64,000 nucleotides of DNA from Candidatus Tayloriibacteriota bacterium (GTDB taxonomy: Bacteria; Patescibacteriota; Minisyncoccia; Phycocordibacterales; CAIRYW01): contig JAQBQZ010000013.1 in assembly GCA_028286725.1 (NCBI GenBank), forward strand, positions 15,216-79,215, read 5' to 3'. This document shows positions 3,257-48,600 of the stretch, piece after piece (within the stretch, counting starts at the first letter, position 1; the number at the start of each line of letters is the position of its first letter). A program made the position numbers and the translations under genes. The notes under the pieces are model-generated. The model did no database searches and had not been told where the DNA came from. It worked only from the letters and a program-made list of their open reading frames with translations.

Positions 3257-3329
3257 GGGCGATTAGCTCAGTTGGTAGAGCAATTCATTTACACTGAAAA
3301 GGTCACAGGTTCGAGTCCTGTATCGCCCA
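3257..3329 (+). tRNA. tRNA-Val(TAC), CCA not encoded
   Basis: Acceptor gggcgat/atcgccc, D arm gctc/gagc, anticodon loop tttacac, T arm acagg-ttcgagt-cctgt. Confidence 0.95.
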
Positions 3330-3512
3330 CAAAAATACAAAAAACACTTAGAATATCTAAGTGTTTTTTGTATTTTTGTGGGCGATAGCAAGTGCGGGGC
3401 ACTTGCGTACAGGACTCGAAAACCTTTTGAGCCTAAAATTGATTTCAAGAAAATTTTAGCCAAAAGGTGTACTGCGACTGTAAGTCGAGAGTTCCTGGTA
3501 CAGGACTCAAAC
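3321..3512. repeat. tRNA-Val-linked structured element (32-bp perfect inverted repeat, anti-T-arm copies, scaffold class B)
   Basis: 3321-3352 is the exact reverse complement of 3356-3387; 3408-3420 is the reverse complement of 3310-3322; hairpin scaffold 3422-3487; further copies at 3488-3512. Confidence 0.85.
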
Positions 3513-3556
3513 ATAAAAAAACTGGGCTTGATTGTTCATCAGCCCAGTATAATAGT

Positions 3557-4039
3557 TCATTTAAAAACAACCTCAAACCAAAATATCGCGGTCCATTCGA
3601 TTGGAGTGGTCAGATCTTTTGCTTCAAATCTTTGTTCTGTGAAATTTGGTATGTAGTTGGATCTACCCTCAAAACATCTGATTCTCAAAATCTCACCATT
3701 TGGTTTGTAACGAACATTTCTGACGAGGTAGACACTTCCATAACGCACCGCTTCTTCTGCAACCTTTCTCGCTAAACTTTCATCTGTAATGTATCGGATC
3801 CTTGCAGCTCCCGCTAAGCTTTTTCTTAGCAATTTAAGATGATTCGATGAAGGTGGCAACCAATTAAGTGTGTAGCGATGGGTGGTGGGATTACCGGGGA
3901 GTAGGAGACAGTTTTCGAGCGGGACAAAAATCCTTCCCCCAATCTCGATTCGCGGTTTTCCGTCAGTTCTACCATGAAAAAAATTATTTGCTTCTAACAT
4001 AGATTCCTTTCTGTTGATTTTCTTTCGAAATATTGTCAC
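3557..4039 (-). CDS. hypothetical protein
   Basis: 160-aa ORF ending at a hairpin (actgggct/agcccagt, ~3521-3548); no recognised motif. Confidence 0.45.
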   Translation of the reverse strand: MTIFRKKINRKESMLEANNFFHGRTDGKPRIEIGGRIFVPLENCLLLPGNPTTHRYTLNWLPPSSNHLKLLRKSLAGAARIRYITDESLARKVAEEAVRYGSVYLVRNVRYKPNGEILRIRCFEGRSNYIPNFTEQRFEAKDLTTPIEWTAIFWFEVVFK

Positions 4040-4168
4040 TACTCCCTTGCATAGTCAATCTAATTTTGAATAATAAAACATAATTTATATATTTATCCTT
4101 ATTTAATATGTCTTAAATACTGTTGAAATTATTTTGACAACAAACTCTATTTTTGCTACTTTAGAATC

Positions 4169-4936
4169 ATGATCGAACAAAAACTCAAGCAAATAGGATT
4201 GTCGGATAAGGAAATATCAGTGTTTCTTTGTGTTTTGCAGTACCAAAAAATCACTCCTGCCAAGGTATCAATGATTACAAAAATAAACAGGCCAACTGTT
4301 TATAGTGTTTCAAAAGAACTTTCTTTCAAAGGATTGATTGATTTTGATGAAGCCGGATCTTCAAAGTATCTCGTATCTCTTGGTGAGGGAGCTCTCGAGA
4401 ACATCACAAAGCTACAGGAGGCGAAGATTGTGCAAATCAAAAAGGACTTGCCAACAATTGTAAAAGAACTTAAACAATTACCAAAGCAGGGTAAGTATTC
4501 GATTCCAAAAATTCGTTTTGTTGATGAATCTCGACTAAGAGAATTTCTGATCAGTGAATCTTCTAAATGGGCGGACAGTGCGGAGGCTCATGATAAAACA
4601 TGGTGGGGCTATCAGGATCACACATTGCTTGAACACTACGAGGACTGGGCAGATCACTTTTGGACAAAATTTCCAAAGGATATAGTTTTAAATCTATTGA
4701 CAAATAAAAAACCTGTTGAGACAAAGGTTATGAAGAGTAAAAAATATAAATCTCTACGAAATATTCGTTATTGGAAAGGTGTTAATGAATTCACTTCTAC
4801 ACATGTAGTGGTGGGGGATTATGTGCTTATGATTGTGACAAGGGAACATCCTCATTATCTTGTGGAGATTTATGACAAAATGATGGCAGAAAATTTACGA
4901 AACTTGTTTAAAGGCATCTGGGAACAGATATCTTAA
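4169..4936 (+). CDS. TrmB-family transcriptional regulator
   Basis: LKQIGLSDKEISVFL...KINRPTVY wHTH followed by a PLD-like effector domain. Confidence 0.85.
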   Translation: MIEQKLKQIGLSDKEISVFLCVLQYQKITPAKVSMITKINRPTVYSVSKELSFKGLIDFDEAGSSKYLVSLGEGALENITKLQEAKIVQIKKDLPTIVKELKQLPKQGKYSIPKIRFVDESRLREFLISESSKWADSAEAHDKTWWGYQDHTLLEHYEDWADHFWTKFPKDIVLNLLTNKKPVETKVMKSKKYKSLRNIRYWKGVNEFTSTHVVVGDYVLMIVTREHPHYLVEIYDKMMAENLRNLFKGIWEQIS

Positions 4937-4958
4937 TCCGTGTTATAATACTCATATT

Positions 4959-5882
4959 ATGATTACAGCATCAATTCTGACCATCTTTGGTCTCGCATTA
5001 TTCGAAATCATTTCAAGTGCCGACAACGCCATTGTTAACGCGGAGGTCCTCGAAACTATGTCTCCAAAGGGAAGAAGGTGGTTTCTTATTTATGGAATAC
5101 TCTTTGCCGTTTTTGTTATTCGAGGACTTCTTCCTTGGGTTATTATTTATGCGACAAATCCACAGCTCGGATTTATTGGTGCACTCACTGCAACATTCTC
5201 TAATGATCCAATAGTCGCAGAATCTATCCATCAATCAGCGCCGATCCTTATGGCGGGAGGTGGAGTATTTCTTGTTTTTCTTTTCTTTCACTGGCTTTTT
5301 CTTGAGAAAAAAACATATGGACTTGTAGGTGAAGCATTCTTTCATCGCCAAGGAGTTTGGTTCTTTGCTGTTGTATCAGCAATACTTGCAGCTGTCGTAT
5401 GGGAGGCTCTCAAAGTTGATCCCATGATGGCATTTGGCGCTGTTGTTGGTTCGACTGCATTTTTTATCACTCATGGATTCAAAGAGAATGCAGAAAAGGC
5501 GGAAAAAGATCTCCTTCATGGAGCATCAAATAAATCTGACTTGAGTAAGATCCTTTATCTCGAAGTTATCGATGCAACGTTTTCTATCGATGGTGTCCTT
5601 GGTGCATTCGCATTTACACTTTCTGTGCCACTCATTCTTATCGGTAATGGTATTGGCGCACTTGTACTTCGAAAGCTTACTATTTCAAATGTTGAGAATG
5701 TAAAGAAATATATATTCCTCAAAAACGGTGCGATGTACTCGATATTTTTCTTGGGAGTAATCATGCTCCTGCACGCATTCCACTACGATCTTCCTGAATG
5801 GGTTTCTCCTGTTGTGACTTTTGCTACTGTTGGATATTTCTTCCTCAAATCTCATTATCATCTCAAGGCACAAAACATTTAA
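4959..5882 (+). CDS. DUF475 / TerC-like membrane protein
   Basis: EIISSADNAIVNA and LYLEVIDATFSIDGVLGAFA motifs. Confidence 0.85.
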   Translation: MITASILTIFGLALFEIISSADNAIVNAEVLETMSPKGRRWFLIYGILFAVFVIRGLLPWVIIYATNPQLGFIGALTATFSNDPIVAESIHQSAPILMAGGGVFLVFLFFHWLFLEKKTYGLVGEAFFHRQGVWFFAVVSAILAAVVWEALKVDPMMAFGAVVGSTAFFITHGFKENAEKAEKDLLHGASNKSDLSKILYLEVIDATFSIDGVLGAFAFTLSVPLILIGNGIGALVLRKLTISNVENVKKYIFLKNGAMYSIFFLGVIMLLHAFHYDLPEWVSPVVTFATVGYFFLKSHYHLKAQNI

Positions 5883-5883
5883 G

Positions 5884-6609
5884 GTGAAAGATATTAAAAT
5901 TCTCTTCGAAGACAATGATATTGTAGCGTTGAACAAGCCTGCGGGTATTGTTGTTCACGGTGATGGCAAGATGAAAGACAAAACAATCTCTGATTGGGTA
6001 GTCAAAAAATATCCTGAAACAAAAGATGTAGGGGAGTCTATTGAGCTTGAAAGTGGAGAGATGATAGACCGACATGGGATTGTACATAGACTCGACAAAG
6101 ATACTTCGGGTGTGCTTTTGATTGCAAAAACTCAAGAGGGATATCTGCATCTCAAAGCACAATTCAAAGAACGAAAGATCAAAAAAACTTACAACGCATT
6201 TATTTATGGAAAGATGAAAGACGAGAGAGGAATTATCAATCGTCCGATCGGACGAGCGACAGGTAGTGTGCGCAAGTGGGCAACAGGCAACAAGACTCGA
6301 GGAGAGCTTCGAGAGGCTGTCACGAAGTTTAAGGTGGTGCAGAATGCGATGCCAGCGTCTCTCTTGGAGCTTTGGCCTCAGACTGGGCGAACACATCAGA
6401 TCCGTGTGCATATGCAGGCCCTGGGGCATCCAGTGGTCGCTGACTCTCTCTATGCTCCGAGTCGTGAAGCGGTGTATGGATTCAAAAGACTTGCACTTCA
6501 CGCGAGAAGACTGATATTTAATGATCTAAAAGGCGGTCTCATTGAGGTGGAGGCACCTTTTCCAAGTGACTTCAAAGACGCTATGGAGGAGATCGGGATC
6601 AAGATATAG
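5884..6609 (+). CDS. RluA-family RNA pseudouridine synthase (start likely GTG 5884)
   Basis: NKPAG, HRLDKDTSG, TGRTHQIRVH, LHA motifs. Confidence 0.93.
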   Translation: MKDIKILFEDNDIVALNKPAGIVVHGDGKMKDKTISDWVVKKYPETKDVGESIELESGEMIDRHGIVHRLDKDTSGVLLIAKTQEGYLHLKAQFKERKIKKTYNAFIYGKMKDERGIINRPIGRATGSVRKWATGNKTRGELREAVTKFKVVQNAMPASLLELWPQTGRTHQIRVHMQALGHPVVADSLYAPSREAVYGFKRLALHARRLIFNDLKGGLIEVEAPFPSDFKDAMEEIGIKI

Positions 6610-6668
6610 GCATTGCACTTGGTCAAAAACTATGATAAAGTCTCTAAATCAATTTAAGTTAAATATAT

Positions 6669-7091
6669 ATGAAAGCGACTGCAAAAACAGCAAATGTAAA
6701 CATAGAAGAGCGACGAACACAGGATATCCGACCTGGAGATGTTGTTAAAGTACACCAGAAAATTCAAGAAAAAGGTAAAACTCGAATCCAGATCTTCGAA
6801 GGTATGGTTCTTGCACGAAAGCATGGTGTAGAAGCAGGCGCTACTATCACTGTACGACGAGTTGCTAACGGATACGGAGTAGAAAAGATCTATCCTATGT
6901 ACTCACCACTTATCGAAAAGATCGAGGTTGTTAGACGAGCAAAGGTTCGAAAGGCAAAGCTCTACTATGTTCGAGACAAAGCTCAGAAAGAACTTTCAAA
7001 GCGAATGCGAGCAGAGATGATGCGAAAAGATGAAACTCCTGCAGAAGAAGTTGTGTCAGCTGATACAAACCATAACGAGTCCTCAAATTAA
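6669..7091 (+). CDS. rplS: 50S ribosomal protein L19 with C-terminal extension
   Basis: [32 protein letters not shown]. Confidence 0.97.
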
Positions 7092-7126
7092 GGATTCGTA
7101 TTTGGTATTTTCTAAAATTTCAAAAT

Positions 7127-7167
7127 AATAAAAACGAGTCCTCAATCCGGGGGCTCGTTTTTTATTT
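7127..7167 (+). terminator. intrinsic terminator after rplS
   Basis: aaaaacgagtcctc-aatcc-ggggctcgtttttt hairpin with U tract. Confidence 0.75.
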
Positions 7168-7224
7168 GTCTGAACAAATAAAAAAGCTCGTTAAACTCAA
7201 ATAAAAAAATACGTTAAACACATT

Positions 7225-7656
7225 ATGAAAATATTAAAACCTGACTTTGCAAAACGCGGCGGTGTAATTCCTGTTATCGTACAGGATGTAAATTCTGGTA
7301 TTGTGCTCATGCTTGCATACACAAACGAAGAATGTTTTCTGGAGACGATTGCGTCGGGGGATGCGGTCTATTATTCAACCTCAAGACAAGAGCGTTGGAA
7401 AAAAGGTGAAACGAGTGGAAATACTCAGCGAGTTCGCTATATGTACATTGATTGTGACAATGATGCACTCATCTATAAGGTGGAACAAAAAGGTGAGGGT
7501 GCATGCCATACTGGAGCGCTGAGTTGCTTCTTTAGAACCATTGGTGGCAATAAAGGGTATTCAGGCGGTCCAATTATGAAGTATGATGAAAGCTCGTTTT
7601 TTCAAATGCCGGTTGTGAGAATTGGCTGGCTTGTTGTAGATCAGATGTCGGTTTGA
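7225..7656 (+). CDS. hisI: phosphoribosyl-AMP cyclohydrolase
   Basis: VLMLAY, STSRQERWKKGETSGNTQ, DCDND, ACHTG..SCF. Confidence 0.93.
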   Translation: MKILKPDFAKRGGVIPVIVQDVNSGIVLMLAYTNEECFLETIASGDAVYYSTSRQERWKKGETSGNTQRVRYMYIDCDNDALIYKVEQKGEGACHTGALSCFFRTIGGNKGYSGGPIMKYDESSFFQMPVVRIGWLVVDQMSV

Positions 7657-7687
7657 GATAAAAGGCACTCTATAGAAATATAGAGTG

Positions 7688-8623
7688 CTAATTTTTATAT
7701 ACGATCTTTGTTGTGTGTTTTACTAGTTTTTCAAATTTATCAAAAAAAGTAAGACAGATTATTGCGCAGATTATATTGAAGAGAAAATGTGCGTTCACTA
7801 TTTGCTGAGTCTCGTCTGTGCTTATGATTTGGAGGAGCGACATGAATGGGTCTATAAGTGGAATGAATATTGCAACTCCAATAATATTAAAAAGTACTTG
7901 AGCTATCGCCACTTTCTTTGCTTCAAAAGCGGCACTTGTGCTTGCAATGATAGCTGTAAATGGAGAACCAATATTTGAGCCAAGCATAAATCCGATTGCG
8001 GCCGGGAGAGTGATAAGTCCCTGAGCGCCGAGAATGATTATAACTCCAGTGAACACTGAACTTGATTGAAGTATCGCTGTGATGATCGCTCCTGCGACTA
8101 TTGCCTTGTATGGATTCGACATTGCGACAAGAATGTTTTGGAAATCGACATTATCTTTAAGCGGAGAAACTATATTTGAAATAATAAAGAGCGAAAGGAA
8201 TATGATTCCAAAATAAAAGATGGCTTTGCCGTATCTTTTGAATCGAGTTTTCGTGTGAGAAATAATAAATCCAGCGATCACAATGATTGGTGCAATATAT
8301 GTCATGTTGAGAGCGATGAGTTGGGCACTGATCGATGGGCCAATATTGGCACCAATCACCACACCGAGCGCGTTTCGTGATGTGATGATACTTGCGTTTA
8401 CGAGGCCTACGAGGATAACTGTGGTAGCGGTAGATGATTGAAGGATGGTTGTGATAAGTGTGCCACTCAATGTCCCTTTGATCGGCGTATTAGTCCAATT
8501 ATTTAAAATATTTTTAAGCTTATCGCCAGCAACTCGCTGAATTTGGTGGCTGAATTTTTGAACAGCAAAGAGAAATACGATAATGAGAGAGAAGACTGTT
8601 GTAATGATCGTGCTTGTATCCAT
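7688..8623 (-). CDS. Na/Pi cotransporter family protein
   Basis: Two QSS repeats (QSSTAT, QSSSVF) with GANIG / GSNIG. Confidence 0.9.
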   Translation of the reverse strand: MDTSTIITTVFSLIIVFLFAVQKFSHQIQRVAGDKLKNILNNWTNTPIKGTLSGTLITTILQSSTATTVILVGLVNASIITSRNALGVVIGANIGPSISAQLIALNMTYIAPIIVIAGFIISHTKTRFKRYGKAIFYFGIIFLSLFIISNIVSPLKDNVDFQNILVAMSNPYKAIVAGAIITAILQSSSVFTGVIIILGAQGLITLPAAIGFMLGSNIGSPFTAIIASTSAAFEAKKVAIAQVLFNIIGVAIFIPLIDPFMSLLQIISTDETQQIVNAHFLFNIICAIICLTFFDKFEKLVKHTTKIVYKN

Positions 8624-8702
8624 GTGTGTTTTTGTTCATATTATTGTATCAGAAAAACAAAAAGTTGAAATTATCTCAAATTTTAGTAGTATAGGCTCTA
8701 AT

Positions 8703-8786
8703 GCGCGGGTGGCGAAATTGGTAGACGCACTACCTTGAGGTGGTAGCGCCCGTAAGGGTATGGAAGTTCGAGTCTTCTCTCGCGCA
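8703..8786 (+). tRNA. tRNA-Leu(GAG)
   Basis: Acceptor gcgcggg/ctcgcgc, anticodon arm ctacc-ttgaggt-ggtag, long variable arm ccc-gtaa-ggg, T loop ttcgagt. Confidence 0.95.
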
Positions 8787-9005
8787 CAAAACGGTATTTC
8801 AAAAAAGAGCCCTGCGGCTCTTTTTTGCGTTTTGTGCGAGCCGGAATATATGGCTTTGCCATAATGAGGCGGGGTCGCAAGTACTTAGTAGAATTCAAGC
8901 GAAGCGAAGAATTATACTTAGTAACTTGTGACCACAAAATATACAAAAAACTGTAAGTTTCGAGTTCTTCTCTATAAGACTGTGCCCGAGTCTTCTCTCG
9001 CGCAC
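8787..9005. repeat. tRNA-Leu-linked structured element ending in a 19-bp direct copy of the tRNA 3' end
   Basis: cgagtcttctctcgcgcac at 8769-8787 and 8987-9005; degenerate copy at 8959-8973; long hairpin ~8873-8933. Confidence 0.85.
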
Positions 9006-9188
9006 CCTTGTATTCTTTACCCATGTTGACCACAAACCTTCTCACTTTCCTGCATTTATGTCCCAATTTTCTCCCTCGCACCCCAACCTCTCCCTCCCTC
9101 GTATACTTATCCATAGGTCGCTGTATTACCAGGCTTAATTTTCTTTATATTCAAAATTTCAATTAATCTAACAAAATCAATAAAACTT

Positions 9189-9842
9189 ATGTCAAAAAAA
9201 CCTACAATAGTAACATTAACCGCCGCCATCCTTATCGTCACTAGTGCTACATTCACAGATAGAGTATTTGCCTCTACTTCTAATCCTTCAATACAAAAAG
9301 TCGAACATATTAAACATTTGGCGAAAGAGAATGGGGTGGTAGGAACTGTTGAATCCATATCAGGTAACATTCTAATAATAAAAGATAAAAATAATGTTTC
9401 TTATAATGTTGATGTGAGTAGTGCAAAATTATTTAAGGCAAAAGATGTCACAATTGCACTATCTGATATCAAGGTCGGAGAGAAAATATTTGCAGCAGGA
9501 ACTGTAACAAATAACACGGTTGTCGCTACAAAAGTATATGATGGTCAAAAAATAAAGACTCATTCTGGTACCAAGAAGGAATTCCAAGGAGTTGCGGGTG
9601 TCGTTACATCAATAAGTGGGCACAGTATTACTCTCACTGGCAAAGATAACATTGTGTATGTAGTTGATGCGACTAATGCAGCGATCAAAAAAGGCAGCGC
9701 AACAAGTACTGTTGATATCTCTCAAATTCAGAGCGGAGATAAGCTTTTTGTGAGAGGTGTTGTCACGGGCACGACTGTTGTTGCAACAAACATTGAAGAC
9801 GGACACAGGACTCACGTTAAAGGGTCAAAGAAAGTAAAATAA
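9189..9842 (+). CDS. secreted protein with two DUF5666-like OB repeats
   Basis: Signal peptide; repeated G.V.SISG..I...K....Y.VD...A ... I..G+K+FV.G. Confidence 0.75.
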   Translation: MSKKPTIVTLTAAILIVTSATFTDRVFASTSNPSIQKVEHIKHLAKENGVVGTVESISGNILIIKDKNNVSYNVDVSSAKLFKAKDVTIALSDIKVGEKIFAAGTVTNNTVVATKVYDGQKIKTHSGTKKEFQGVAGVVTSISGHSITLTGKDNIVYVVDATNAAIKKGSATSTVDISQIQSGDKLFVRGVVTGTTVVATNIEDGHRTHVKGSKKVK

Positions 9843-9913
9843 TATTTTTAGACTAAATCTCCGCACCTTTAGGTGTGGAGATTTTTATTTGTCTTTTGTG
9901 TTAAACTTATTTC

Positions 9914-10663
9914 ATGAAAAAAAGACATCTCGGAGTTTTAATACTTATAATTATTCTTGCGTTTGTTGCAGGATATTTGTGGCAGGTAACACACAAACTG
10001 GGAGAGCTCAAATCTTCCATTCAAGAAATCAGATTTGGAGGAAAGCAAGATAAATATGAGATAGATGCAGCATACCCAGTGATCGAATCAGGAGTGCCAG
10101 AAAACATAAAAAACAGCATCAATACAGAGCTTGAAAAGTGGGCAAGAGATGGGGCAGAAAAAAGCAAATCAGAATTTGAAGATCTTTTGAAGGATCCAGA
10201 GCTTGCAGGCTCTGATCTCGGGCTTATGTATTCAAGTACTGTGTCCGTCAAAAGCGATTTCAAAAAACTTCCGTACATCAATGTTTCTTTTGAAATCTAT
10301 GATTATTCTGGAGGGGCGCACGGGATCACCGCAGTTTCAACATTTGTCTATGACGCGAATACTGGAGAGAAAATAACTCTAGATAAAGTATTCTCTGGAA
10401 ATTATTTAAATACGCTTTCAACGCTCTCGCTTGCCGAGCTCAAAAAAACAGATCCAAAACTTGAGACATATAGTTTTGCGGAAGATGGGACAAAGCCTGT
10501 GGCTGACAACTTCCAAACATGGACTCTCGAACCTGATGGAATACATTTTGTGTTTAGTGATTATCAGGTTGGTCCATACTCTAGCGGAAGACCAGAGATC
10601 GTACTTTCTTATGAATCGCTAAATAGCGTTCTTAATCCAGAATTCAAGAAATCTCTTTATTAA
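9914..10663 (+). CDS. DUF3298/DUF4163 (RsiV/PdaC-like) membrane-anchored protein
   Basis: YSGGAHG, F.DYQVGPYSSG motifs; N-terminal TM. Confidence 0.85.
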   Translation: MKKRHLGVLILIIILAFVAGYLWQVTHKLGELKSSIQEIRFGGKQDKYEIDAAYPVIESGVPENIKNSINTELEKWARDGAEKSKSEFEDLLKDPELAGSDLGLMYSSTVSVKSDFKKLPYINVSFEIYDYSGGAHGITAVSTFVYDANTGEKITLDKVFSGNYLNTLSTLSLAELKKTDPKLETYSFAEDGTKPVADNFQTWTLEPDGIHFVFSDYQVGPYSSGRPEIVLSYESLNSVLNPEFKKSLY

Positions 10664-10742
10664 TAGGCTATCAAAAGAAATACTAGATTTATATTGATTT
10701 TTCTGGTATAAATTGATTACTTCATATTTTTGAAGGATGTAT

Positions 10743-10814
10743 GGCGACTATAGTTTAGTGGCAAAACTCCGGTTTGTGGAACCGGTATCGAGAGTTCGAT
10801 TCTCTCTAGCCGCC
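10743..10814 (+). tRNA. tRNA-His(GTG) with encoded G-1 and C73
   Basis: Anticodon arm ccggt-ttgtgga-accgg; T arm gagag-ttcgatt-ctctc. Confidence 0.95.
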
Positions 10815-10872
10815 CATGATTTAAAAAAGAAAACACCCTCTGCTGGGTGTTTTCTTTTTTAATCACAGCGAA

Positions 10873-11104
10873 GCTAGAGAGAATCGAATGGCGGAGGCAT
10901 ATTTTCTGAGTACAGAAAATGCCGAGCCGGTGCCCAGGACAAATACGAGCGACGGCGAGTATTTAGTCCGCGGGCGATTCTCTCTAGCCCTCGGGGACTT
11001 GCGTGAGAGAATCGAAGCCCGATTGAGCAAATTTTGAGAGTGAAGCGAATCAAAATTTCCAATCGGGATACTGGTCGTGTAACGACCGATAGCTCTCTAG
11101 CCGC
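10873..11104. repeat. two tandem tRNA-His-linked structured units (scaffold A 10873-10989, scaffold B ~10993-11104)
   Basis: Inverted T-arm copies 10873-10888 and 11005-11016; direct copies 10975-10989 and 11087-11104. Confidence 0.85.
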
Positions 11105-11129
11105 TTCCCAAATCTGCTATAATTATCTA

Positions 11130-11750
11130 ATGACCACCCTCCCAATTATCGGTATGAGCCCAGGCAATAGCTACTTTAAATATGGAGTAGTAAAAGAATT
11201 ACTTCAGAAAGTTGTAGAGAAATATGGAAAAGCTGCAATCATGATTGCCGATGTTCCAGCGATTTCAACTTATGTTGCACTTGGGTATCCTCAGAATAGA
11301 GCAAGAAGGGATAAAGCTCTTCCTCAAGGTAATGCGCTCAAAAATAAAGTTAAGAAAGCTATGGTTGAATTAGGCTACAGCGCAGATCAAGTGATAATTA
11401 TTGATTGGAAAAATCAAATTGAAAATAATTCAGAATACAAAGAAAAATATAGTTTGATAGAAGGGTTGTATCAAACCAATTCTTTGTTTCAAAACGCTGC
11501 AGACGCTACGACAAAAGGTATATTGGCTGGCGCAGGCGAGGAGATTCTTGATTTACCTGATTCAATAAAAATCGCTGCGCATTATCTCTTGGCAGAGATC
11601 GCTTTTATGGAATTTGCTCCAGACTTTTTGAAAGTAAAAAAGGCTACATATATTTACCATAGAAGCTGGCCAGTATTTGAAAGTTATATAGACGGGAAGT
11701 TTGATGATAAATCAAAAGATTATTTAGGATTTGAGATTATTGAGATTTAA
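11130..11750 (+). CDS. tRNA-dependent cyclodipeptide synthase (CDPS, NYH-type); start likely ATG 11130
   Basis: GMSPGNSYF (catalytic Ser, Asn), YLLAE (Tyr, Glu), YIYH; TGCTATAAT 6 nt before the ATG. Confidence 0.85.
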   Translation: MTTLPIIGMSPGNSYFKYGVVKELLQKVVEKYGKAAIMIADVPAISTYVALGYPQNRARRDKALPQGNALKNKVKKAMVELGYSADQVIIIDWKNQIENNSEYKEKYSLIEGLYQTNSLFQNAADATTKGILAGAGEEILDLPDSIKIAAHYLLAEIAFMEFAPDFLKVKKATYIYHRSWPVFESYIDGKFDDKSKDYLGFEIIEI

Positions 11751-20873: not shown

Positions 20874-22037
20874 ATGAACCTCGAAGATTTATTTGCCCAA
20901 GGTTTTGGATTTGTGAGGAATGGGGATCTTAAACCATTTCCTTTTGACCATCGAACACCTGTGAGATCTGGATCTGAATTTGGTGTTACGAAGGAAAGTG
21001 TTCGGGAAATAGCTAGTGCTTGGACTCGATGGAGGAATATCGTAAAATCACTTCTCGCGAATAAAGAAGCGGACACTCTTATTAGGAATCAGGTTACTCC
21101 ATCTGATCAGATCAAAATGGAGTGGTCACATGTTACTCCGGACTATGAGCGTTATTTCGGAAATCCTTTACATGTGACAAGGATTGATTTAACGATTGAT
21201 ACCGAAGGAAAGTTAAGGATTCTTGATCCGAATGTTATGCCTTACGGTATTCCGGCGATAGTTGCGGCCGGTGAAGCTCTTGGTCTGACGTCGCATAAAC
21301 AATATCTTCAGGCACTTAAGAGTTCTGGAGTAACGTGGGTATGTGATGATTATCATGGAGGGTTGCCGACTGTTGAGTGGCTTTGTCGGTATGCGGGCAT
21401 CAGTTTTTGCCGCAGTTCAAATTTTAAGGGAGCTCATTCTGTTATTCGCCTTTCTCGGGAAGATGTCAGGGGTATGGAGTCAACGGTCGGCATCTCCGGT
21501 ATCAGGGTGTATGAAAGTCAGTTATGGCCAGCACTTATTAATCTGGGTGCAACAAAGATTTTTGGCCTCAATGTAAACGCCGCTCAACTTGAATGGTTTC
21601 GCAACATGGTGACACAAACCTATTTAGCAAAAATATCTGGAGGCAAAGCACTGGTGGCTGTGTCGATGGATACACAAGGATTCTATTGGATTCCTTTTGA
21701 GGAGTTCTGTCGGATTCATAATACATGCTCTCGTAGTATGGATAAAATTTTTGTGAAGAGGATTCATTCTTCTGGGTCTCGTTCTGTTTCATTCTGCGAT
21801 GCGACACAGGTGTCAATTCTAGAGTGCGCAGCATCAAATAAGGTGGGTATCAGGGATAACGAAATGTTTCTGATTCAGCCTGCTGTATCCTGTACCATAG
21901 GTTCTTCGAGAGTCAGGATCGCTCTTTACATAGGCTATCAAGGTCAGTGTATTGGAGCAGAGGTTCTCCGCGTTGCAGGGAGTAAGAGGATTGCTCATGG
22001 TTCGAGTGATTCCAAGGTCAGTTATTTAACCTTTTAA
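20874..22037 (+). CDS. circularly permuted ATP-grasp / glutathionylspermidine-synthase-like amide ligase (divergent)
   Basis: RIDL...LRILDPNV (R.D..E.N-like), VKRIHSSGSRSV, FLIQ, RVRI, C-terminal HGSSD. Confidence 0.6.
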   Translation: MNLEDLFAQGFGFVRNGDLKPFPFDHRTPVRSGSEFGVTKESVREIASAWTRWRNIVKSLLANKEADTLIRNQVTPSDQIKMEWSHVTPDYERYFGNPLHVTRIDLTIDTEGKLRILDPNVMPYGIPAIVAAGEALGLTSHKQYLQALKSSGVTWVCDDYHGGLPTVEWLCRYAGISFCRSSNFKGAHSVIRLSREDVRGMESTVGISGIRVYESQLWPALINLGATKIFGLNVNAAQLEWFRNMVTQTYLAKISGGKALVAVSMDTQGFYWIPFEEFCRIHNTCSRSMDKIFVKRIHSSGSRSVSFCDATQVSILECAASNKVGIRDNEMFLIQPAVSCTIGSSRVRIALYIGYQGQCIGAEVLRVAGSKRIAHGSSDSKVSYLTF

Positions 22038-45677: not shown

Positions 45678-48600
45678 ATGCACAATCATCATCTAAGGAA
45701 TATATTAATTATTTTTATTATTTTCTTCTGTGTAAATACTGCATCTGCGCATGTCACTATTCCTGATGGTTCGACGACTTCTTGCGGGAGTCTTGATTCG
45801 ACGAATTTAACAACACATACAACAAATCAAATCGAGTCTCGTATAAGTCAGACCTCTTCAACAACAGGTCTATCTATGTATTCAAACAGGGATTTTAGTC
45901 TTGCGAGTACGACTGCACCATGGACTCCCAACCCAAACTCATGGACAAAGAAAGGTGCAAGTGCGCTCGATTTTACTGGAGTTGCCGGGTACAACTTATA
46001 TTCAAGCGGTACAGGTATTGCGCCGAATAGAATCGCAACTCTCATTTCACCTCGACACTTTCTTGCTGCGGCACACTACACACCAAATCCAGGCGAAGTA
46101 TTGGGATTTATCGATGCGAGTGGTAATAGAATAGAGAGGACTGTAACAGGCATTCAAAATATTTATGGTACTGATATTGAAATAGGGGTACTCGATTCCG
46201 ATCTTCCTGACAGTATTACTTACTATCCGCTTATTGCGTCATCAACTCTTCGAAGTTTGGTGCAGCAATATACTCCTCAAAATTTGGCTGTTCCTGTCGT
46301 GTACTTTGATCAAGAAGCAAAAGCTTTGATACACAGTATTTTTTCGATGGGAGATGCAATTACTTATAGTACATATACAAGCGGAGACTTTGCTCCATAT
46401 AGCGAAACTATTATTTCTGGAGATTCGGGTAATCCTGAATTTATTCTCATTGATAATCATCCCGTACTTCTTTCTGCTACTTATGGTGGTGGAGGGGGAT
46501 ATGCACCAAGTGCGGGAGCATATATGAGTCAGATTAATACCGCGATGACAAATCTTGGTGGAGGATACCAGGTAACACAGTATAATCCAGCCTGCTTCAT
46601 TCAGTATCCGTTCAATCGCCAGCCTGTATTTACGAGTTCACCTTCGTCTAACATAATTACATACGAACATACTGATCCTTCTTCGGCGCTGTTTACATAC
46701 CTTGCAACCGATGCTGACAGTGATCAAACTCTCACATATGCGCTTGTAAGTCTCACTACATCTACAACAACGCTCAATGCTTCAGATTATTTCAGTATAA
46801 ATCCTGCAACTGGTGTTTTACATCAGACTCATGATATGAGTATCGGTGCTTTAGGTACAAATTTGACTCTTGTGGTCTCTGCGACTGACAGCGGTACGTA
46901 TCCTTCGCAAGCAACAATATCAAATACGGTGAGTCTAAGAAGTGTGCCGCAGGCTGGACCAAAAATTATTCTCGATCCTTCTTTTACTCTAGCTACTATT
47001 TCAGGAAATACGACGTCACTTTTTGTAGACTCGAATGATAAAGTGCTTATTGGCGGTAGTTATACTTCAGTAAATGGTGTGAATCAAAACGACATTGCTC
47101 GTCTCAATTCTTCTGGGTTGCTTGATATGAATTTTGCAACCAATATAGGATCTGGTGTTTTGAACTATAGTGATCAAAATATAAATGTAAATAGGATCTT
47201 TACAGATTCACAGGGCAAGATTGTATTTATACCGGGTGACTATATTAAATTCAGCGGAGTTAATGGCTGTAATATTGGCAGGTTAAATTCAGATGGTACT
47301 TTAGATACAAATTTTGTTTGTAGTAATAGTAATGGAGGATATGGTTTTACAATCAATGGAAATAGTGGTGCAAATGTATATGCGGCAACAAAAGCAGGAG
47401 ATAAATTGCTTGTAACTGGTAATTTCAATAATTATAACGGCACTACTGTGGGTGGAGTAGCACTTCTCAATCAGGATGGAAGTCTTGATACCAATTTTAA
47501 TAGTAATTTTGGTATTGGTATAAATGGTATTTCATTGGGTGGTGCCGGCAAAGCAATTGCTTTTGATGGCGATCATAGTTTTTATGTTGGAGGAACTATG
47601 TCTGATTATGTAAATGGAAGTGGAGCCACAACAACACTACATCGTATTGCAAAATTTGATATCAATGGAACTTTTGATTCGAGCTTCGCTGTGAACAATG
47701 GTACAGGTTTTGCGTTTTCGAATATAACAGATATGAAAGTGCGTCATGATGGTAAAATTGTTGTTATTGGATTTTTCACTAGTTTTAATGGGGTTCCTGT
47801 AACTAGAATTGTATTACTGAATCCCGATGGAACCCTTGATACAAGTTTTGCTACGAATTCTGGAGCAGGATTTTCTCAGACGCCATATTCGGTATATGTT
47901 CAAGATGATGACAAGATGATCATTGGAGGAGCTTTTAGTTCATATAACAATATTGGGACAAATGGACTTGTGCGTCTTAATAAGGACGGAACACTCGATA
48001 CTGATTTTCAAAATGCATTTGGCAATGGTATTACAGGAACTGTGCTACAAGTTTCAAAAAGAAGCGACGGTGCTCTCGTGACGCTTGGTGGCTTTGATTA
48101 CAATAGTACACTTTTAAATTACAATGTGGGTGAGTTTGTAACGCAAACCCCAGCGACTCCGGTCTTTACGGCGGCTACTACGGTAGGAAGTACTAATGCG
48201 GTAATTTCTGGTACAGGTTCATCAACTGCAGTCGTGTCGGTCTTTGATAATGGAACTCTGGTCGCAACAACGACTGTTGATGGAAGTGGTTTTTGGCAAA
48301 AGACAGTGTCGCTTTATTCAGGAACACATACTTTGACAGCGATACAAACACTCTCACTTCTTACGACGGTTGCTTCATCGGTATCAAATAGTGTCATTGC
48401 GACCATTAATCTCTCTGGATCTTCTGGCGGAGGAGGTGGCGGCGGGGGAGGTGGAGGAGGATCATCGGCGCCCGTAACGACACCGGTCACAAATCCGACA
48501 AATCCAGTCACACCGAATGTTCCAAATATTTTGCCAACTATTCTACCTAATACTACTTTGCCGAAATTAGATGTGCTTGTAAATAAATCTCTTCCACCGA

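Follow-up and report, generated by a model that had tools for sequence, protein, structure and literature searches.

A target-matched folded scaffold behind tRNA genes of a Tayloriibacteriota bacterium and its possible spread as single-stranded DNA

What kind of sequence places one and the same folded scaffold behind different tRNA genes, each time between segments that match the gene in front of it? The question is raised by a 64,000-nucleotide stretch of contig JAQBQZ010000013.1 (the window), where a first-pass annotation had described two such copies, one behind tRNA-Val and one behind tRNA-His. Both were found where it had placed them, and the two loci, along with a related one between them, are made up as follows.

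3257..3330, + strand: tRNA-Val(TAC), the 3′ part of which (positions 54-73) is the host segment X
3321..3387, + strand: perfect 32-bp inverted repeat, comprising the acceptor 3′ strand, the terminator-like hairpin H1 and an inverted acceptor copy (3380-3386)
3388..3408, + strand: Val side hairpin with A and GT linkers, inside the inverted copy at the tRNA 65|66 junction
3409..3420, + strand: exact inverted copy of Val positions 65 to 54 (T arm)
3421..3487, + strand: Val scaffold B, a 17-bp stem with an extrahelical A (and C), an RTACTG linker and a 5-bp hairpin with a GTA triloop
3489..3508, + strand: Val direct copy, beginning at position 57 and carrying an additional T at 59|60 (direct part 3489-3497)
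8703..9005, + strand: tRNA-Leu(GAG) and a sister module of the same wider family, without the B stem
10744..10815, + strand: tRNA-His(GTG)
10820..10989, + strand: His hairpin H1, first inverted T-arm copy (10877-10888), sister module and first direct copy (10975-10989)
10993..11016, + strand: His truncated side hairpin and second exact inverted T-arm copy (11005-11016)
11017..11086, + strand: His scaffold B, with a tandem G.A apex and a GAA triloop
11087..11104, + strand: second copy of the His 3′ end in direct orientation, changed near position 59

Architecture of the element

If X denotes the end of the host gene, the element reads X, hairpin H1, inverted X, scaffold, direct X′. Scaffold B itself consists of a big stem (3422-3468 at Val, 11018-11067 at His) and a small GTA hairpin (3475-3487 and 11074-11086, respectively). 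Folded as DNA, it forms a three-way junction, and both copies fold better than all 200 of their 200 shuffles (z −4.5 for Val and −4.7 for His). The His locus carries a tandem pair of modules, and the Val direct copy folds back on a third fragment, which is inverted (3500-3508), with a further GTA loop in between. The Leu sister module has a GTA hairpin at 8948-8960 and an exact 18-nt direct copy of the tRNA-Leu 3′ end at 8988-9005.

Two details of the earlier description have to be amended. The segment GGGG(C)ACTTGCGT, taken there for a constant linker, really belongs to a separate hairpin (3388-3406), of which it forms the loop and 3′ arm; this hairpin interrupts the inverted copy at tRNA 65|66, is truncated at His and varies across the family. 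The extra base or bases ascribed to the sense copy are present in 19 cases and absent in 16, hence optional.

The scaffold letters are not an artefact of this assembly, since public contigs of one DNA run match 3356-8729 and 8730-11500 with 0 differences. The run may derive from the source sample, and the palindrome 3292-3356 is unbridged in its contigs. A joint of 3474 to 2900 in these contigs was considered as a circle and rejected, as it most likely represents a paralogous copy behind the upstream tRNA-Arg on the same contig. Among the assembled contigs of the run, no circle, capped end or empty allele was seen. The tRNAs in two RNA runs belonged to other organisms.

Covariation, host matching and turnover

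The stems of the Val and His copies differ and still pair, as had been noticed, and the same holds for the family: in an alignment that was fitted to the model, 96% of 2247 cells are paired and 21 of 22 pairs are compensatory, with none of 500 shuffles as high. The extrahelical A is kept at 90 of 107 loci, while the apex is variable. The flanks were said to match the host gene, and at 63 of 107 loci they differ from their own tRNA by no more than one mismatch (after shuffling, 5.5 loci on average and 13 at most), although such a match is not found at every locus. Purine 57 follows the host in 68 of 69 cases.

The homologues looked for include 17 copies of scaffold B in the source genome, where 19 of 37 tRNAs carry an inverted copy, and the scaffold is present in 40 of 61 genomes of the order. 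None of 120 further genomes from the class and phylum matched an exact motif, and a search of viral contigs likewise gave nothing; L061 and L098 were rejected as family members, being chance matches to coding sequence from other phyla. Scanning the whole genome for palindromes proved too unspecific (402 regions), and ARAGORN with relaxed intron settings returned only noise. The T arm had been proposed as the core of a recombination site, but matching arms also occur at rplK, ftsZ and 5S rRNA ends. The orthologous Val and His genes of relatives are in many cases empty and in others bear different modules, so the element turns over between relatives. At L331, perfect tandem units are seen, with the encoded CCA kept in the last copy. 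The view that this is not a described family held up: Rfam at the gathering threshold returned tRNAs only, the sub-threshold matches being generic hairpins, none overlapping the B core, and a search of the literature (main texts) found no description of the element and no counterpart whose inverted and direct targeting arms are both rewritten for each new target.

Taken together, the covarying fold, the fixed junctions described below and the turnover lead to the reading that we favour, by a narrow margin over its being wrong: scaffold B belongs, as one of its modules, to an insertion element that has no genes, copies its target and acts in the form of folded single-stranded DNA. That the fold is one of single-stranded DNA, as first proposed, is probable, because the loops are small: apex loops measure 2-3 nt in 42 of 62 cases, and GNA triloops occur 13 times, GNRA and UNCG loops twice each. 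G.T pairs number 30 of 2157 in the scaffold versus 17 of 430 in tRNA stems, a scarcity that can also stem from palindrome perfection.

The loops, being of the DNA type rather than GNRA or UNCG, also speak against the strongest alternative, namely a selected RNA trailer. In a read-through transcript, the inverted copy would pair first with the 3′ half of the tRNA and then with the direct copy, thereby tuning termination or 3′ processing; such a trailer would spread by host recombination between T arms, with the arms corrected by template switching. It would account for the fact that, at most tRNA loci, the element lies downstream and in one orientation (73 of 135 matches), for the presence of the element at the ends of highly expressed genes, for its retention at rplK in five genomes (which may be one old insertion) and for L351 and L377, where the direct arm does not match the host tRNA. 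However, a terminator-like hairpin with a T run lies before the inverted copy, many orthologues lack the element, and copies upstream of tRNAs or in reverse orientation also occur. We regard this explanation as unlikely.

The abundance of inverted copies among the tRNAs of the source genome might alternatively reflect a host shield, a cruciform that hides the tRNA 3′ end from integrases and homing nucleases or acts as a decoy for them. The inverted copy does span positions 54-72, the stretch used by islands and, according to PMC2330249, read by SegB. Nevertheless, islands have integrated at tRNA-Ala in front of such an element, and the copies at protein-gene ends require another reason, which makes a shield very improbable.

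Junction geometry and a possible route of insertion

The inverted arm stops at tRNA position 54 in all 69 of 69 cases, and the direct arm opens with the host’s own positions 56-58 in 51 of 69. Junctions at 54 and 56 correspond to those of a break that has a 2-nt 3′ overhang and is closed by a hairpin cap. At five rplK loci and one ftsZ locus, the two unpaired bases (2 or 3 there, judged by eye) follow the host gene. At tRNAs, the two A’s opposite T54/T55 may be scaffold-borne, because they also appear in copies behind another module; moreover, the small hairpin ends with T at position 55 in 48 of 69 cases, which blurs the top-strand junction.

These junctions suggest how the preferred element might insert. 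A nuclease acting in trans would break the target between 55 and 56 on the tRNA top strand and between 53 and 54 on the bottom strand, leaving the 2-nt 3′ overhang. The scaffold would then cap the downstream end, with position 56 joined to its 3′ end and the 3′ end of the bottom strand to its 5′ end, while the upstream end would be extended on the target, so that the gene end is rebuilt and closed by a second hairpin, H1. It would follow from the capping and extension steps that the arms are written from the target at every insertion, not brought from a donor. Further modules would enter later at fixed points: the scaffold junctions, 65|66 in the inverted copy and 59|60 in the direct copy.

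It is conceivable, with chances somewhat below even, that a new minimal class of mobile DNA is represented here, in which structured single-stranded caps are joined to staggered gene-end breaks by a trans-acting nuclease-ligase, the arms arise by fold-back synthesis, one scaffold reprogrammes itself harmlessly to any tRNA, rRNA or protein-gene end, and modules nest recursively. If insertion does proceed in this way, it would be a new DNA insertion route with a defined cut geometry, testable with short oligonucleotides and 80-residue candidate nucleases. It would also explain why ornate trailers follow roughly every second tRNA gene of these streamlined genomes, as well as the assembly breaks there, and might offer a compact scarless insertion tool.

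Candidate movers and known systems

The window holds no tyrosine, serine, IS110, Y1 or RT gene, in agreement with the earlier reading of a non-autonomous element. The source genome likewise has no Y1, RT or IS110 gene; it does encode one Xer-like and three serine recombinases, and serine recombinases leave 2-nt 3′ overhangs. These enzymes could serve an attC- or CTXphi-like folded site, whereby a unit is excised as a dumbbell circle and integrated at a matching tRNA by the host Xer or an island serine recombinase. The folded arms would restore a double-stranded T arm, and the frequent extrahelical A and the tandem units would fit. However, the change of arms between targets is left unexplained, the rplK and ftsZ ends are not att sites, and the tRNA-Ala island has its right junction in the acceptor stem and has displaced the existing element by 8 kb. 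The likeness to attC sites, as characterized in PMC5027507, lies in the folded single strand, the conserved structure with drifting sequence and the extrahelical bases. In contrast, the RYYYAAC/GTTRRRY box pair of that definition is absent from the ends of all 17 own-genome copies, the fold, although it has the extrahelical A and a variable apex, branches into a three-way junction where attC forms one hairpin, the arms are target-copied, and neither cassette arrays nor IntI were seen; the sole tyrosine recombinase scores 129.7 versus a cut-off of 265 for the integron integrase model TIGR02249. The earlier comparison with attC is thus not supported, and a folded site of this kind is improbable.

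In the T-loop class of tRNA-targeting integrative elements, an attL/attR duplication arises: the tRNA is rebuilt, and the original 3′ end is displaced as a direct repeat from the T loop. The present element also shows a rebuilt tRNA and a displaced direct 3′ fragment, but it has no integrase or cargo, only about 100-250 non-coding bases between the repeats, an inverted copy in addition, and the same scaffold at many tRNAs and protein genes.

The IS110 bridge RNA is a scaffold with segments matching both target strands, and scaffold B, being constant and flanked on both sides by variable target-matched segments, shares this feature. A programmable guide or bridge-like RNA serving a trans-acting recombinase or nuclease had accordingly been suggested. 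In scaffold B, however, the two segments are local and mutually complementary, which leaves neither of them free; they match nothing but the adjacent gene, and no IS110 or RT gene is present. Of the explanations considered, this one is the hardest to credit.

REP/BIME/REPIN sequences with RAYT, as described in PMC3733652, resemble our element as small non-autonomous palindromic modules at gene ends, with mosaic arrays and a mover in trans. Scaffold B differs in its low copy number, strict junctions in structured genes and inverted plus direct target copies, and in the lack of a Y1 transposase in the genome; the element consensus shows neither GTAG nor CGTC, the tags that stand at the foot of REP palindromes of 20-40 bp.

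As a first guess, doubtful as it is, the putative mover of the preferred element would be a small stand-alone GIY-YIG nuclease. Phage T4 SegB, a GIY-YIG homing endonuclease, is described in PMC2330249 as reading a conserved T-arm motif of many tRNA genes and producing 2-nt 3′ ends, features that the envisaged mover would share. Unlike the mover envisaged, SegB cuts near the CCA end and not at 54-56, is autonomous, homes by recombination and leaves no hairpin cap. The genes neighbouring the element are host genes, and no nuclease or recombinase recurs among the 367 ORFs within 500 bases. When 152 element and tRNA loci were screened for a GIY motif, only two spurious rows came back, and model R1 gave no significant match at 60 GIY-YIG and Y1 loci, the 30 Y1 loci included. 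Across 22 genomes, copy number correlates neither with the small GIY-YIG count (rho 0.19, p 0.40) nor with the Y1 count (rho 0.24, p 0.29); G006 and G025, with 14 and 8 copies, both lack a small GIY-YIG gene. In relatives, small GIY-YIG genes are flanked by duplicated tRNA 5′ ends, the displaced copy containing a hairpin.

Scaffold B at two tRNA genes and across the order

Both copies of scaffold B, a hairpin module, lie in the window where the first-pass annotation placed them, each behind a tRNA gene:

3257-3330, tRNA-Val(TAC), host of the first copy
10744-10815, tRNA-His(GTG), host of the second copy

In each, tRNA positions 65 to 54 recur first as an exact inverted copy; next come a 17-bp stem bearing an extrahelical A, an RTACTG linker, a 5-bp hairpin capped by a GTA loop, and a direct tRNA copy starting in the T loop. 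Folded as DNA, the two copies give a three-way junction and, on both strands, score better than all 200 shuffles; their letters are unchanged in contigs from a public DNA run, possibly the source sample. An Rfam search returns tRNAs only. A cyclodipeptide synthase gene (PF16715; 11130-11750) lies directly behind the His element.

The genome itself (G000; 906 kb, 14 contigs, 37 tRNAs) carries an inverted copy of the tRNA's own T arm, with at most one mismatch, at 19 of the 37 tRNAs (exact at 16), and at 18 of these 19 no other tRNA matches equally well. Further homologues were recovered: a model built from 15 own copies finds 17 in this genome, and across the order 40 of 61 genomes have matches, with 1 to 34 in each. 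The literal motif is present in 25 of 41 relatives (reversed control, 0) and in none of 120 genomes from elsewhere in the class and phylum, where diverged forms would escape it. Viral contigs gave 0 matches. The genome collection holds at least 122 matching stretches, and among the matches listed most titles carry Parcubacteria, Paceibacterota or other Patescibacteria labels, as deposited. The family is real and widespread in one order. It is apparently undescribed: no description of the element was found in the literature, and the accessible part of 10.64898/2026.09.22.753630 does not mention Patescibacteria.

Fold and relation to known systems

The proposed stem covariation holds, with compensatory changes at 16 of 22 pairs among the 15 own copies and at 21 of 22 among 107 model matches, in an alignment fitted to the model; in that same fitted alignment 96% of paired cells pair, versus 39-59% in slid controls. 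The extrahelical A is kept in 90 of the 107, and 62 have at the apex a tiny stem resting on tandem G.A pairs, its loop being a GNA triloop (13), another triloop (21), two bases (8), GNRA (2), UNCG (2) or other (16). G.T pairs number 30 of 2157 in scaffold stems versus 17 of 430 in tRNA stems. GNA mini-hairpins are much more stable in DNA than in RNA (PMC13037366, in part), but their stability varies with the closing pair (PMC3201870, in part), and the small hairpin is mostly closed by T-A (102/107, a count biased by the search pattern). A scaffold that would fold as DNA is the favoured reading. Multi-branch single-stranded DNA motifs are expected to be rare, according to the available part of PMC5737381.

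Scaffold B works like folded-DNA mobile sites. Two identities had been suggested for it, and neither is supported. An attC-like site would have box pairs (as defined in the accessible section of PMC5027507), which occur in 0 of the 17 own copies. Against a guide- or bridge-like RNA stand a negative bridge-RNA test and a genome that encodes no IS110 or RT gene. The REP/RAYT test (PMC3733652, in part) was also negative, and the genome has no Y1 gene. The likeliest reading, held with moderate confidence, is that scaffold B is a DNA cap element that has no genes and copies its target.

Arms and junctions

Among 253 distinct tRNA loci, a set enriched for scaffold B by the way of collection, 107 have it within 420 bases of the tRNA. 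The arm before it is within one mismatch of the tRNA's own T arm at 63 (shuffled mean 5.5, maximum 13), as predicted for flanks that track the adjacent gene; the other 44 have an intervening module or diverged arms. Wobble positions, judged by eye, make the inverted copy a true complement of the 3' strand and not a 5'-strand copy. An inverted T arm is present at 112 loci: in 67 a hairpin interrupts the copy exactly at 65|66, in 3 the copy is contiguous, and in 42 no acceptor copy is recognisable. The 63 direct copies are exact (16), carry 1-3 extra bases at 59|60 (19), differ otherwise (5) or are not alignable (23); two loci (L021, L328) carry a 14-base mini-hairpin at 59|60.

Of 135 distinct motif matches, 73 lie behind a tRNA, 4 ahead of one, 22 close to a locus end and 36 without a tRNA. 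Other targets, named here by reading the translations and without a family scan, include 5S rRNA, rplK ends (5 loci, which may reflect one event) and an ftsZ end accompanied by a direct repeat of 35 bases. At L035 (near 1400-1530) the scaffold stands behind an apparent glmS 3' end, the region targeted by Tn7. A second scaffold B element (G000:C10:4365-4565) lies upstream of tRNA-Asn; the acceptor end of its first tRNA fragment is foreign, while its direct copy matches tRNA-Asn.

The abutting inverted arm stops at position 54 in 69 of 69 cases, and the direct arm opens with the host's own 56-58 in 51, starting at 57 in another 13. Base 57 follows the host in 68 of 69, positions 51-52 are not tracked by the small hairpin, and new, model-selected loci agree. 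At the rplK and ftsZ loci the two bases left unpaired match the host gene. Such junctions would be expected if a cap had been joined across a DNA end bearing a 2-nt 3' overhang; the two A's at tRNA junctions, where assignment of position 55 is ambiguous, may be scaffold-borne.

Candidate movers and turnover

The window contains no recombinase, as first observed; the genome's one Xer-like recombinase, three serine recombinases and three small GIY-YIG genes all lie outside it. GIY-YIG enzymes produce 2-nt 3' ends (PMC2761285, in part), and a T-arm motif is recognised by SegB (PMC2330249, in part). Against such a mover, the model has no significant match in 60 GIY-YIG and Y1 loci, and scaffold copy number correlates with the counts of neither family. 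In relatives, small GIY-YIG genes occur before start codons, in 16S and RNase P genes, and following duplicated 5' ends of tRNAs, where the displaced copy contains a palindrome:

L234, L275, L276, L287: GIY-YIG gene between a duplicated tRNA 5' fragment (with GC palindrome) and the intact tRNA
L290, L308, L310, L318: the same arrangement

L222, L315 and L307 have such genes in 16S rRNA genes (two) and an apparent RNase P RNA gene. Two near-identical ones in G000 (L380, C12:62599-62799; L381, C6:11719-11925) have imperfect terminal inverted repeats at their borders and each lie immediately ahead of a host start codon, a design repeated in relatives (L277-L279, L282-L284, L286, L293, L294).

Across 14 genomes of the family, judged by eye, tRNA-Val(TAC) carries scaffold B in 4, probably also in 1 at a contig end, only sister modules (which lack its stem) in 4, nothing in 4, and is cut off in 1; tRNA-His has modules in 6 of 18 cases (by eye). 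In L331 two near-perfect units stand in tandem, and since the last direct copy retains the encoded CCA, it is the distal copy that represents the host's original end. Modules are nested within one another and present in duplicated tRNA 5' halves. An 8-kb island in tRNA-Ala (G000:C9:87021-95250), which encodes a large serine recombinase and probably a primase-polymerase, has displaced a hairpin element by 8 kb. The assembly breaks inside perfect post-tRNA hairpins at contig ends C3/C13 and C6/C14, which overlap in sequence.

At L029 and L103 (near 1500), tRNA-Asn 3' halves not called by ARAGORN probably follow an anticodon-loop intron. On G000:C14, tRNA-Ser(ACT) (21623-21710) and tRNA-Ile(TAT) (47260-47334) have anticodons unusual in bacteria.
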